This document shows positions 34,588-61,149 of a stretch of DNA of 64,000 bases, one piece after another. The DNA comes from Eledone cirrhosa (lineage: Eukaryota): the NCBI GenBank assembly GCA_964016885.1, contig OZ024740.1:197966001-198030000 (forward strand), in the 5' to 3' direction. Position 1 is the first letter of the stretch, and the number at the start of each line of letters is the position of its first letter. Both the position numbers and the translations under genes were made by a program. The notes under the pieces were generated by a model. It was not told the DNA's origin. It worked only from the letters and a program-made list of their open reading frames with translations, and did not search any database.

Positions 34588-35190
34588 TCAACTAGAAATT
34601 GATTGACATATAAATATATCTAAAATAAACATATGAAACAATCACAGGGGATAATTTGTAAAAGTGTGTAAGCACACATAGCTATGTAGGTAACTAGATA
34701 AAGTTTAACTAGAACTTCAAAAATAGATACCTTATGAATTGATTAAGCTGGTACGATGTGTATTTTTAGTAAATACAGCACCTGTTACTGGCCAGTCGCT
34801 GATTTGAATTTGATGCGTAAACACAGATGGTTACTCCTCTTCCTTGTTGAAAATCCAGGATCTGGCTACTGTCGTTTACCAATCGATTAATTGGTGAAAT
34901 ATATTTCTTTAATGGAATATATACAAGGAAGATTAATCAATTTATAAGGTATCTATTTTTGAAGTTCTAGTTAAACTTTATCTAGTTACCTACATAGCTA
35001 TGTGTGCTTACACACTTTTACAAATTATCCCCTGTGATTGTTTCATATGTTTATTTTAGATATATGTCAATCAATTTCTAGTTGATATAAAATGCTCGGA
35101 TCTACTCATTGGAATCTTGGAGCATATTTTACGGGTGATATGGCGCATGTCTATCTGACATGACACCCTTAATTTAAGTTAATTTTGGAT
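34588..35190. mobile_element. (TA)n-embedded inverted-arm element
   Basis: ~158-bp inverted repeat 34588-34747 / 34931-35087, with a ~100-nt tail on the right arm. Same family as 22675-23405. Confidence 0.7.
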
Positions 35191-35277
35191 ATATATATAT
35201 AAATATATATATATATATATATATATATATATATATATATATATATATATATATATATAATTACAACAGTGACGTAA

Positions 35278-35327
35278 ACAGGTACTCAAGTTTCGTTGGG
35301 TTCTGGGCCCTAATTTCTTCAGCCTGT
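35278..35327 (-). ncRNA. Type I minimal hammerhead ribozyme
   Basis: Reverse complement reads acagg-CTGAAGA-aattagggcccagaacccaac-GAAA-cttgag-TA-cctgt. Lies within a 150-bp element (35260-35410) between (TA)n tracts. Confidence 0.8.
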
Positions 35328-35597
35328 CATTTTTCTCATGACTAAACTCGTCCTATGGACTGAGTGCTCTTACTCTTGGATATTTTCATTTAACCTTTAC
35401 TCCAGTAGATATATATATATATGTATACAGATGATATATATATATATATATATATATATATATGCAGAGGTTATATTTAATTTGTTGGGATTCAACAAGC
35501 TTAAACATTTTTATAACTGATATAAAGCACTCAACAGTTAGTGGAGTAAATATACAATATATTAACAAATGGAAACTATATTTATAAAACCATATTT

Positions 35598-35661
35598 ATT
35601 TTATTATACATATTTCGAGAGCCACCAAGGCAAATTATGGTGCGCTTTCATCAGATAAAAT
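35598..35661 (-). ncRNA. Type I minimal hammerhead ribozyme
   Basis: Reverse complement reads attttat-CTGATGA-aagcgcacca...tggtggctctc-GAAA-tatgta-TA-ataaaat. Confidence 0.8.
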
Positions 35662-36255
35662 ACAATACAGATTTGTTTTATAAATAAATATTGATATACC
35701 CTGAAAAAAGACAACCTTAACTGTGAATGGCAAGGGCCGTAACTCTATGCGTCGAAGTATGGCGTCCGACCCTCTACCGATACTAATAGAGTTTTGACAG
35801 TTAATTATATAAAGCAAATTTCCTTGATACACAAATGACAGATTCTTGAGAAAGCCATATTTCGGTATGCAGGTGCTTACGAATCGTTTCCCAATATTAT
35901 AACTCATAATATAGCTAAATAATTTTTTTAATTCTGGAATCATATTCCACCATTCCTACAAACTGTTAATTCTTCTCAAATTCACGTAAATACAAGCTTT
36001 TCTTTCTTTCTCTTTCTTCTTCCTACACATACATATATATATATATCCTAATAATTATTTAAATATACCTCGCGTCTAAAAAATAACGTTTTTTTTGTCA
36101 GCCCTATACCTCAACCGCATTTGCATACTAATCTTAATAATTTGAAATATTTGACTTTTCTTCTCTTTCCCTTCTTTCCTTTTACTATCCAGGAAAAACT
36201 TGAACCGTTAAGATCTTCTTCCTGGATATGTCAATATTTATAAAACAAACTTTGT

Positions 36256-36315
36256 ATTTTATCTGATGAGTGCGTACCAAAATTTTGGTACTCGCTGAAA
36301 TATATATAATAGAAT
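36256..36315 (+). ncRNA. Type I minimal hammerhead ribozyme
   Basis: attttat-CTGATGA-gtgcgtacca aaattt tggtactcgct-GAAA-tatata-TA-atagaat. Confidence 0.8.
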
Positions 36316-57859: not shown

Positions 57860-58085
57860 TGAGTTAGAAACTCAAAATAGTCTTTTACAATTAAATAGCT
57901 CAAGTAAGGGAATCTTTCCGAGCCGTGTAATACAATTGAATATATAAGGGGGATGAACACCGATACAAGTATACATGTAAATGTATCATTGAAAAAAATG
58001 ACCAAGCTAGCCTAACTTGGTCATTTACAATTCGAACACATGTATACCTGGATCGGTGTTCATCCCCCTTATATATTCAATTGTA
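57860..58085. repeat. (TA)n-embedded inverted-arm element
   Basis: tacaattgaatatataagggggatgaacaccgat..tatacatgt (57931-57978) is inverted at 58038-58085. The left tail 57860-57930 resembles 12662-12735. Confidence 0.65.
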
Positions 58086-58203
58086 TATAAATATAAATAT
58101 ATATATATATATATATATATATATATATATATATATATATATATATATATATATATATATATATATAATATAAGATCAAAAGATGGGTAAAAGAGTTCCA
58201 AGT

Positions 58204-58272
58204 ATTTTATTATGCGCATTTCAAAAACAAATGTCATAATGGGATGATATCTGCGTTCTCATCAGATAAAAT
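58204..58272 (-). ncRNA. Type I minimal hammerhead ribozyme in a PLE pLTR
   Basis: Reverse complement reads attttat-CTGATGA-gaacgcagatat...atttgttttt-GAAA-tgcgca-TA-ataaaat. Confidence 0.8.
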
Positions 58273-59515
58273 AGGGATACATGATATGAAGCTTAAACAA
58301 CACTTGTGAATAGTGAAGTTTTAAATCAACATATGAAAAATAAATTAAGATTGATGTATGAGATTGGGAAAAAGTGAGTGGGGGTTGGAAAAGGTAAGGA
58401 AGAGGAAGAGATGAGAGTAAAGAATGGTGGGGGAGGAGTATAAGAAGGAAGGACGAGAGAGGAGGAGAGATGGGTGATAGAGAGAGAGAGATAGCCTTTA
58501 CAACTGAGAAAAAAATATATATTGTCTCACAGAGAGAAATTAAAAAGCCGTTGGAAGATAATAGATAATTTAAAAGAATTTGAAATGAGAAGTTAATGAG
58601 GTTTCTGCATGAAGAAAAAGGAATTAAGAATAATATTAAAATAAGGTTTGTATATGTGCGAGGAAAGGAAATTATTAATATGTATTATTAAAATAAAAAT
58701 ATTAATGTTATTAAGGATATAATGTGAAAAGAAGGAGAAGAATGAATGAGTTATGAATTTAGAGGAATTAGTTAGGGTTTAAGTTTGTTTTTATGTAATG
58801 TAATATGTGTACGTAATATGTGTACGTAAATAGTTTGTTTAAAAATGAGCGCAGAAGGCAAAGAAGAAAAGAATGTTTAAGGAAGAAAATATCTAACATC
58901 AAAAAATATATATGTTTACGAAATATTTTCTAATGGCAATAATATAATATAATAAAAGAAATTAGTTAGGGTTTAAGTTTGTTTTTATGTATTGTAATAT
59001 GTAAAGTCAAATTAAGTATTAGTTTAAAACGAGCATGAAAGGATGGGGGAGATAAAAGAAATTTAAGGAAGAAAAAATCTAACGTCAAAAAAATTATATG
59101 TTTACTAATGGTAATACTATAATGTATTAAAAAAATAATAATTTTTATGGCCAATGATATGAGGAAAGATGGAAGAATGGATAATGTTGTAGTGAGTAAT
59201 AATAAGAATTGAGAAGTAGTTAGGAACAAGAGGTTAGAAATTAAAAAGAAAAGAGGAAGAAAGGAAAATGATAAAGATGAATGATATAGAATGAGTAAAT
59301 TGTATTATATAATATATAATAAATAATATTGAAATAAGGTAGAAAGATGGGTATATTTGTAAAAGATATATAAGCCTTTGAGAAAAAAGGATTTTAAACT
59401 AGTAAGGTATTAGATATTAGCTGTATACTTCATGGAATGTTCTGTGGAATTTATGCAAGCAGAGAGAAAATAAATCCGTGCGTCTATTTATTATAGAATT
59501 GAAATTAGATATAAT

Positions 59516-59696
59516 TGTTTCTACGTTAGGCACAAGGCCAGCAATTACCAGTGCATTACTGGTACTTTATTTTATCGACTCCGTAAGGATGAAAGGCTAA
59601 GTTAACCTCGGCGGGATTTGAGCTCAGAATGGCAAGGGCCGTAACTCTATACGTCAAAGGCATGGCGTCCGACCCTCTACCAATACTGCCAATCCA
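59516..59696 (-). mobile_element. SINE inserted into the PLE GIY-YIG domain
   Basis: 15-bp TSD gaaattagatataat at 59501-59515 and 59697-59711. Confidence 0.9.
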
Positions 59697-61149
59697 GAAA
59701 TTAGATATAATGGTAAATTTCTCAGCTAGGCAGAGATTATATGTTCTGGATAGGGAGGAATTCAAGTAAGGAAAGGCAGAACAAACTTTTCTCCAAGGGA
59801 TGTTATAGTTAATATTTTTGTATTTCAAGGACCATATGAGTTCCGAGAGTGCCGTGTTAGTTCTTTTAAGTTGGTATCTAAAAGACGAATTGTGATTATA
59901 AAATCTAGCTTTGCGGGAGGTGGACGTGGAACCGAAATAGGTAAAGGAATTGGTATCAGTTATAACCTTACATTCATAAACTAAGTTTTTATCAAGTCAA
60001 TGGTTATTAAGAGGACATTTAGTTCTAACAGGGCAATTACAATTACGATTAGAGAAATTAACAGAGTTATTAACATTGACCTAGTTTTATTTATAGGAGA
60101 AATTGGATTCGAGAAGTTATTTACGATAGGAATAATAGTTTCCTGATTTAGATTGGTATTATGAACATTCAACGAAGTTACATTTGACGTCGTATTTAAG
60201 TTTACAGAATCTAGCCCAGAGTTAACAATGACATCGGGAGTACTACTGCTAATATTATGACGCTCAGTGTTGGAAGGATGTGATTTAATACTTAATATTT
60301 GATTGTTGTGTTTAGAGATAATGTTAGAGATGTTGGAAGAGGTGGAATAAGAAGATTTTATTGTATGTTTGTTAAAGATTTTACTATAGATATATGAGGG
60401 AGGGAAGCATTTATCTAAGGCCCTAAAGAATAGTTTAGGACAATTATTATTAATAGAAATAGAGAAAGGAGCATTATACCAGATTATATTTTTGTATCTA
60501 GGTCTTTTATTTAAGTTATTGGAATGTTCATAATTAATTATTTTACTGTAAGACCTTCTAGGATTGGTTTCTTTACTGTATTTAATTTTATCAGGATAAC
60601 CGGCTTTAGAAAGCGCATTATTATAGTAATTGGCGTTAGCATCGAAGATATCTTTATTAGAGGATAGGTTTGATATTATTTTTTTCAATATTACTGACTA
60701 TAGCATTTTTCATGTTAGTGGGGTGGTTAGATTTAAAATTAACATAATTTAGATTCTCATTGTTTTTATGATAAGGGTAATATAGGCCAGTGTCAAGATT
60801 AAGGGATAAATCCAAGAAGTTAGCTAGTTTGACGTTGTTATCAAATGCGCATAATAAAATACTTGGAACTCCTTTAACCATCTTTTGATCTTACATTATT
60901 TATCCTCCAGTCCTACAAACTGTAGAGTGCTACTTATCCGATATTTGCATTGCTTTATTGTGCTACAATAAAACTCACCTTCTACACACACACACACACA
61001 CATATATATATATATATATATATATATAATATTAAGGATACTATTTATGCTTATGTATATATTAAACCTTTTATAGTTATGTATATTTTAAACCTTAAAT
61101 AGTGAAGGTCAGTAATTTATTACTACCTTATTATATTACCTTATTATAC

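Follow-up and report, generated by a model that had tools for sequence, protein, structure and literature searches.

Penelope-like elements (PLEs) of the Hydra clade are described as targeting (TA)n, and PLEs generally as carrying an inverted truncated copy and a tail of 30-40 bp at one end (PMC8557442); the mechanism behind the inverted arms and one-sided tails is called open in PMC8557442 and PMC11167929. For Poseidon PAc, in vitro work reports that both strands are nicked and extended from two internal starts that bracket the tail, that RNA 3' of the starts is required, that uncleaved RNA serves as template, and that a dimer is predicted (PMC11167929). Copies of Penelope in Adineta vaga show an inverted pseudo-long terminal repeat (pLTR) with an optional tail on one inverted pLTR (PMC3846280), and opposed pairs of hammerheads 100-700 bp apart have also been described (PMC4209133). 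The inverted arm, the one-sided tail, the (TA)n target and two reverse transcriptase (RT) starts are already published, and the core of the two-priming inference that a first-pass annotation drew from the sequence analysed here is largely known. That sequence is a 64,000-nucleotide stretch of the Eledone cirrhosa genome (contig OZ024740.1, positions 197,966,001 to 198,030,000; the window in what follows), with a GC content of 37% and well over 100 (TA)n tracts, in a 3.0-Gb, microsatellite-rich host genome. From the window and its sister copies we consider it likely that Hydra-clade PLEs, and non-coding repeats with the same ends, insert by nicking both strands of a (TA)n tract and priming one at a short site and the other at a tail site on the RNA, each site being set by a predicted hairpin.

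The first-pass annotation had cited nine short loci and one coding copy as oppositely oriented arms between microsatellites, and all ten do lie between tracts of (TA)n or (CA)n(TA)n; at 36490-36893 the right-hand tract is short and is followed by a SINE-like (short interspersed element) repeat. Each locus holds two arms, head-to-head with their 3' ends facing outward. As had also been proposed, the short end of one arm is fixed and its partner carries a tail, which we measured at 57-105 nt across eight families (60-100 nt had been claimed). The loci, listed without a strand and with hairpin 1, a predicted fold described below, are assigned to families A to H as follows.

58168..60985: family A two-armed insertion; long minus-strand arm running to the short end at 58168, and a 55-nt plus-strand arm with an 87-nt tail (60899-60985).
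40296..40563: family A stub; a short-end arm of 167 nt meets a tail arm that ends ~11 nt past the short site; hammerhead motif at 40457-40525, hairpin 1 at 40356-40380 (minus strand).
2640..2832: family B stub; short end at 2640, tail 2754-2832, hairpin 1 at 2760-2783.
42658..42775: family B stub whose arms do not overlap; distal tail of 57 nt and a 60-nt short arm.
34588..35190: family C, non-coding, ~552-bp tandem unit; short end at 34588, tail ~35086-35190, hairpin 1 at 35094-35123.
36490..36893: family D PLE stub; left-side tail, hammerhead motifs at 36635-36697 (minus) and 36781-36843 (plus).
40683..40958: family E stub; tail ~40887-40958, hairpin 1 at 40893-40913, hammerhead-like core in sister copies.
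41353..41796: family F, non-coding, ~591-bp tandem unit; tail ~41737-41796, hairpin 1 at 41742-41764.
57860..58085: family G, non-coding, ~499-bp tandem unit; left-side tail, hairpin 1 at 57898-57923 (minus).
35260..35410: family H stub; short arm with a hammerhead-like core at 35276-35329 (minus) and an opposed tail arm, hairpin 1 at 35346-35365.

Self-BLAST places inverted arms within 2642-2752, 34588-35085, 36585-36893, 40686-40886, 41354-41736, 57930-58086 and 58167/60897. The loci at 40296-40563 and 42658-42775 are without a notable internal inverted repeat, and their halves match sister copies in opposite orientations; that 35260-35410 consists of two opposed arms was resolved by sister locus L340. 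The end motifs said to be reused by independent copies are present: they mark true termini at 40563 and 58168 and at 2640 and 42775, and 60887-60898 and 2753 are internal points at which the tailed arm reads through into its tail. That such fixed termini recur above chance is clear from thousands of exact end-plus-microsatellite matches in families A (5,755 short, 12,910 tail) and B (5,101 short, 22,312 tail), the reversed-pattern controls returning 0 in both.

The two end types are not combined at random. Pairing was scored in samples made up of the first matches along contig C1, picked by one end, with the opposite end then classified. The family A tail-seeded set includes regions selected as tail/tail candidates, and two read-through loci (L071, L088) were removed from it; duplicate seeds (L049, L051, L057) were removed from the short-seeded set, and the family A classifier under-calls ends beside tracts shorter than (TA)8. 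Opposite a short end in family A (n=62) we found 40 tails, 2 short ends, 13 loci with no end recognised and 7 unresolved; re-reading moved five loci to tail and one to short, for a ratio of 45:3. Seeding on the tail (n=42) returned 24 short ends and 1 tail, with none recognised in 13 and 4 unresolved. For family B, 30 short-seeded loci gave 25 tails, 0 short ends, 3 other ends and 2 loci without an inverted arm, and 30 tail-seeded loci gave 15 short ends, 1 tail, 1 other and 13 without an inverted arm. Tail:short ratios were 11:0 in family F (n=23) and 10:0 in family C (n=25). The opposite end type depends on the seed (Fisher p 8e-15 in A and 3e-10 in B, for two samples that partly share insertions), and because the share of tails opposite differs by seed, the ends are not chosen independently. 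Among classified two-armed copies, the non-coding families C and F included, short/tail pairing is near-exclusive. In L1 twin priming, an inversion results from priming of the target strands at two different positions on the RNA; the second site is variable there and the arms do not overlap, whereas both sites here are fixed and the arms usually overlap.

The proposal of two priming events at different RNA positions gains support both from this pairing of opposite end types and from arms without shared sequence. In 40296-40563, 42658-42775, L040, L043, L160 and L199 the arms have no sequence in common, and since neither contains the other's sequence, fold-back copying of one arm cannot have produced its partner. 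This bears directly on the self-priming explanation offered for the Adineta vaga element, in which a single priming is followed by fold-back self-copying of the cDNA to yield the inverted arm. PMC3846280 interprets junction palindromes in that way, and many copies here do have near-palindromic centres and near-identical arms. However, the short arm can reach further 5' than the tail arm (2.7 kb against 55 nt at 58168-60985), and a short arm cannot template a tail. Fold-back is thereby contradicted for the non-overlapping copies and might at most be a minor route to symmetric copies; as an account of the architecture we regard it as very improbable.

Central junctions in family B vary between copies, 23 of 28 having an overlap or gap of -5 to +2 nt. 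Paired arms are 98.4% identical, as against 92.7% between loci (41/42 loci). Tail arms ending no more than 20 nt from the short site (8/18, p 0.009) were noticed post hoc and are suggestive only. A miniature inverted-repeat transposable element (MITE) should have symmetric terminal repeats and a fixed interior; the ends here are asymmetric and the junctions copy-specific, which would be unexpected if the stubs were DNA MITEs amplified as a unit. The window does hold one element of that kind in (TA)n, at 39270-40129, whose terminal inverted repeats of ~103 nt are symmetric, unlike the ends of the PLE-type loci; it looks like a true DNA-transposon MITE and provides a contrast case. Nor is the alternative that two independent insertions came to lie side by side in one (TA)n without precedent, as family A insertions at L119, L137 and L106 are stacked in one tract, but these independent neighbours have 20-30 nt of TA between them, whereas arm junctions have none. 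Assembly error, the remaining version of this objection, was addressed with raw reads from three samples of one study aligned to a family B unit: loose ends in (TA)n number in the thousands at the two termini, the depth steps several hundred fold at the tail end, and 8 of the 10 joints listed connect opposite strands. The architecture is not an assembly artefact at the family level; the reads did not span the ten loci themselves. We can lend hardly any credence to MITEs, chance adjacency or artefact as the source of the stubs. The first-pass annotation had gone on to read many apparent MITEs in the window as PLE products, which stands for families A, B and D, tied to PLE open reading frames (ORFs), but not for 39270-40129, which is not of this type; for C, F and G, without an ORF, and E and H, without an ORF link, the attribution is taken up below.

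The two fixed sites appear to be marked by a shared predicted fold. A hairpin of the form RCTC-stem-(1-2 nt bulge)-GAGY is predicted beyond both end types, at a distance of 5-13 nt. Of the nine window tails, seven have hairpin 1 no more than 25 nt from the short site, against a background of 0.4%, and in read-through copies its frequency ranges from 67 to 92% across families A to G (A, 92/109; B, 61/66; C, 26/38; D, 25/28; E, 16/24; F, 23/26; G, 18/26). Hairpin 2 (GCTC-loop-GAGC) emerged from a comparison of read-through copies in families A, C, D, F and G; in family B it was predicted first and then seen in 293 copies, and in all six families it is found beyond the tail end, at 5-13 nt. The hairpins show covariation in the lower stem (ACTC/GAGT versus GCTC/GAGC) and have upper stems that pair despite their different sequences. 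In the sequences published with PMC8557442 the same hairpin is recognisable by eye once each in Hydra-2_Amil and Hydra-2_Ajap, after the hammerhead, and twice in Hydra-1_Ajap, ~60 nt apart and upstream of the ATG. Two primings might nevertheless take place with the ends set in some other way, by the endonuclease (EN)-mediated resolution of an intermediate to which PMC8557442 ascribes the tail, or by microhomology between AU-rich RNA and the (TA)n primer, in which case the hairpins would have another role. Both sites do coincide with short AT-rich stretches whose boundary with (TA)n is indistinct by 1-6 nt. However, such stretches are common in these units and only two are used, and each of the two keeps a fixed distance of 5-13 nt from the same fold although the sequences around it are unrelated and some of the families are non-coding, so that we think end choice without the hairpins unlikely.

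The 5' limits of the arms may show where the RNA begins. Short stubs of family A pile up at the A of TTTTCA (-163/-164). Family B arms end at -53 to -63, with TCA at -66 to -64 and a TATA-like box ~25 nt upstream, and family B raw-read alignments end at the A of TCA (4305). By comparison with the TATA/initiator (Inr) promoter consensus, we infer that the arms would end by run-off at a TATA/Inr-like transcription start. In family B the limit falls within the stem II loop of a hammerhead-like fold, and stalling there is conceivable. The idea that family A arms end at the hammerhead cleavage site was rejected, the pile-up lying ~120 nt further 5'. A separate read-end peak at L352:4294 may reflect the restriction site-associated DNA (RAD) library.

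Under the hairpin-directed reading that we favour, a pLTR promoter would drive the RNA, with transcription starting at TCA, and an RT-GIY-YIG protein would bind hairpins 1 and 2 as two RT subunits and nick both (TA)n strands. Priming 5-10 nt 5' of hairpin 1 would create the short end on one strand, and priming 5-13 nt 5' of hairpin 2 the tail end on its partner; each cDNA would be copied toward the 5' end of the RNA, and end-joining would then unite the two head to head. The 100-450 bp MITE-like stubs would come from priming on the 5' copy of the pLTR, and the long or ORF-bearing arms from priming on a downstream copy in a read-through transcript. Families C, F and G, which keep both hairpins, would thereby be able to use the protein in trans.

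Several observations weigh against this scheme. Thirteen of the 30 tail-seeded family B loci are without an inverted arm, five of them bare stubs between TA tracts, and tail patterns exceed short ones 2-4 fold, the patterns differing in subfamily coverage; from the single-armed stubs and the tail excess it follows that the two-armed product is not the sole outcome. Short/short copies exist (2 by automated calling, 3 on re-reading), as does one tail/tail copy in each of A and B. Of 41 loci, just 9 have arms that match each other strictly better than any other arm, with 21 ties, so that a shared subfamily is shown and a shared molecule is not. Hairpin 2 was not found in E (1 chance-looking match) or H (0 matches), the window tails at 60899 and 36490 fail the strict hairpin pattern, and the predicted hairpin energies are weak, at -4 to -8 kcal/mol. 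Raw reads aligned over 41000-43900 revealed neither an empty site nor a spanning record, the alignments being dominated by paralogues. Finally, PMC11167929 reports no difference in start site between the strands and no homology at the start site.

A more far-reaching form of the hypothesis is one that we advance tentatively, and with slightly less conviction than doubt: the RNA would carry a two-site code in which each of two copies of one small bulged hairpin recruits one RT of a dimer and assigns it to one strand of a doubly nicked (TA)n site, a two-armed insertion would for that reason have one short and one tailed end, ORF-less and hammerhead-less tandem RNAs would spread by keeping only the two hairpins, and the signal would be conserved as far as elements of coral and sea cucumber.

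It had been claimed that the copy at 58-61 kb connects the layout to an RT/GIY-YIG ORF. The layout is there, but the ORF is not intact: against the 821-aa ORF of a sister locus the copy matches only aa 410-821, in four pieces and two frames, and YRDD (aa 378) is absent. Its features are these.

59420..60857 (minus strand): frameshifted ORF remnant covering the RT end, thumb, CxCX5C linker and GIY-YIG, aa 410-821 of the sister ORF.
59511..59696 (no strand): SINE-like repeat inside the endonuclease remnant, from self-comparison.
58204..58272 (minus strand): putative type I hammerhead motif in the family A pLTR, from sequence and pairing.

Sister loci supply the missing parts, with stop-free frames of 738-821 aa in family A (821 aa in L130) and 784-786 aa in family B (786 aa in L352), with YRDD and a C-terminal YFG/YIG nuclease. 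The A and B ORFs are 38% identical. Both have an RWK-type motif, RLRW at aa 56/102, whose third residue is T, I or R rather than K, and DKT in place of DKG at aa 144/184; the CxCX5C linker, CxxC and CxH are present and CX2-5CxxC is absent. Insertion into (TA)n was found for both families. On these motifs, read against published descriptions, A and B are placed in the Hydra clade of PLEs; the Neptune clade, our first reading of the coding families, was dropped, DKT and CxCX5C pointing to Hydra. Pfam returned no match for the 58-61 kb frames or the two long ORFs, its only hit being a sub-threshold GIY-YIG match at 22153-22716, and a sequence search of PDB found none for the long ORFs. Hammerheads were called by a custom scan of core and stems: the A and D pLTRs carry putative type I motifs of canonical form; in family B the stems are hammerhead-like and GAAA is present, but the first strand of the core is non-canonical, and E and H have hammerhead-like cores. 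Rfam reported no hammerheads at its gathering threshold. Family D is linked to ORF pieces similar to those of A and B, and a link to an ORF was looked for in E and H and none was found. At L133 the full layout is preserved, an inverted pLTR and tail being followed by pLTR, tail, ORF and the short end of a pLTR; the tail is positioned in the 5' untranslated region, ~90 nt upstream of the ATG, in A and B. L352 and L341-L350 are near-identical 3.54-kb tandem units of family B with open 784-786 aa frames, which suggests recent activity, as judged from their sequences.

Families C, F and G consist of head-to-tail units of 552, 591 and 499 bp without an ORF, the longest stop-free stretch in the units (499-591 bp) being 37-73 aa, too short for an RT. 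The canonical hammerhead core CTGANGA...GAAA was absent from both strands of one unit each of C, F and G, in a scan for the canonical form only. From the shared ends and hairpins we infer that C, E, F, G and H may be mobilised by a PLE protein. Locus L354 (G000:C2:356029000-356033500) is an array of eight 299-bp family B units, which have an internal deletion and retain the tail, both hairpins and the hammerhead-like fold, and could illustrate how non-coding tandem units originate. Families C, F and G also share a GGCTGCTATTTYTAGC-like motif just 3' of hairpin 2 that is absent from read-through copies of the coding families A, B and D.

In their C-terminal GIY-YIG, RLRW (RWK-like), DKT, CxCX5C, CxxC and CxH motifs, predicted pLTR hammerhead (canonical in A and D), (TA)n target, inverted 5'-truncated copy and one-end tail, the elements agree with the Hydra clade as set out in PMC8557442. 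Their units are larger (3.5-3.7 kb, against generally under 3 kb in that clade), their tails exceed the 30-40 bp given for PLEs generally, and the account in the available portions of PMC8557442 contains no pairing statistics, hairpin signal or non-coding Hydra partners. With Poseidon PAc they would share AT-rich DNA, nicking and extension of both strands and two internal RT starts around the tail; that element is of a different clade, its starts lie inside its ORF rather than in the 5' untranslated region and are non-homologous to the target, and PMC11167929 reports no strand-specific or paired use of starts. Adineta vaga Penelope is alike in its inverted pLTR, optional one-sided tail, TATA/Inr-like pLTR motifs and pLTR-only mobilisation in trans, and differs in its 31-bp tail, few copies, target duplications of 8-10 bp and self-priming explanation (PMC3846280). 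Non-LTR retrozymes and non-autonomous PLEs such as MRC1 (10.64898/2026.07.22.740005; PMC8557442) are also non-coding, head-to-tail and PLE-derived or PLE-moved; C, F and G differ from non-LTR retrozymes in lacking a canonical hammerhead core, their tie to PLEs being the end layout and twin hairpins.

Other repeats in the window deserve record. A GIY-YIG remnant of another Hydra-like PLE (22174-22596, minus strand, within 22150-23408), ~40% identical to A and B, is joined directly to family C arms with no TA tract between; a template switch between coding and non-coding RNA, or a nested insertion, is possible at this joint. Three more single pLTR arms bear hammerheads (11024-11265, 35466-35711, 36214-36429) and belong to a family related to D. 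A bare family G tail stub adjoins (TA)n at 12663-12745, and a hammerhead-like core at 12854-12910 lies in sequence unrelated to this nearby stub. Further fold-back sequences, without long (TA)n flanks, occur at 1822-2086, 11794-12104, 31404-31577, 44929-45095 and 19927-20378. The sole Rfam match at gathering threshold is tRNA-like (41131-41201, minus strand) and probably a SINE head. At 45000-56300 there are three decayed tandem copies of a long interspersed element (LINE) with apurinic/apyrimidinic (AP) endonuclease and RT, which we take to be L1/Tx1-like; two decayed copies of RT elements with a C-terminal restriction-like endonuclease motif, at 4900-8300 and 26300-28700, are presumably R4/NeSL-like.

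The literature searched, which excluded older subscription Penelope papers and bioRxiv supplements, yielded no account of the pairing rule, of the twin hairpin, of tails this long or of non-coding partners without a hammerhead, nor a published description of arms ending at an Inr-like TCA or of 500-590 bp non-coding tandem families with the same ends. What these elements contribute is a coupling rule, by which short pairs with tail, and a named cis signal, drawn from tens of thousands of young copies; as the signal can be mutated, the two together make the open question of PLE integration testable. If the reading is true, the twin-hairpin signal would represent the minimal RNA that these telomerase-related enzymes copy, and in TA-rich invertebrate genomes a large class of sequences that look like MITEs would prove to be misfiled, and would be better annotated as retroelement stubs.

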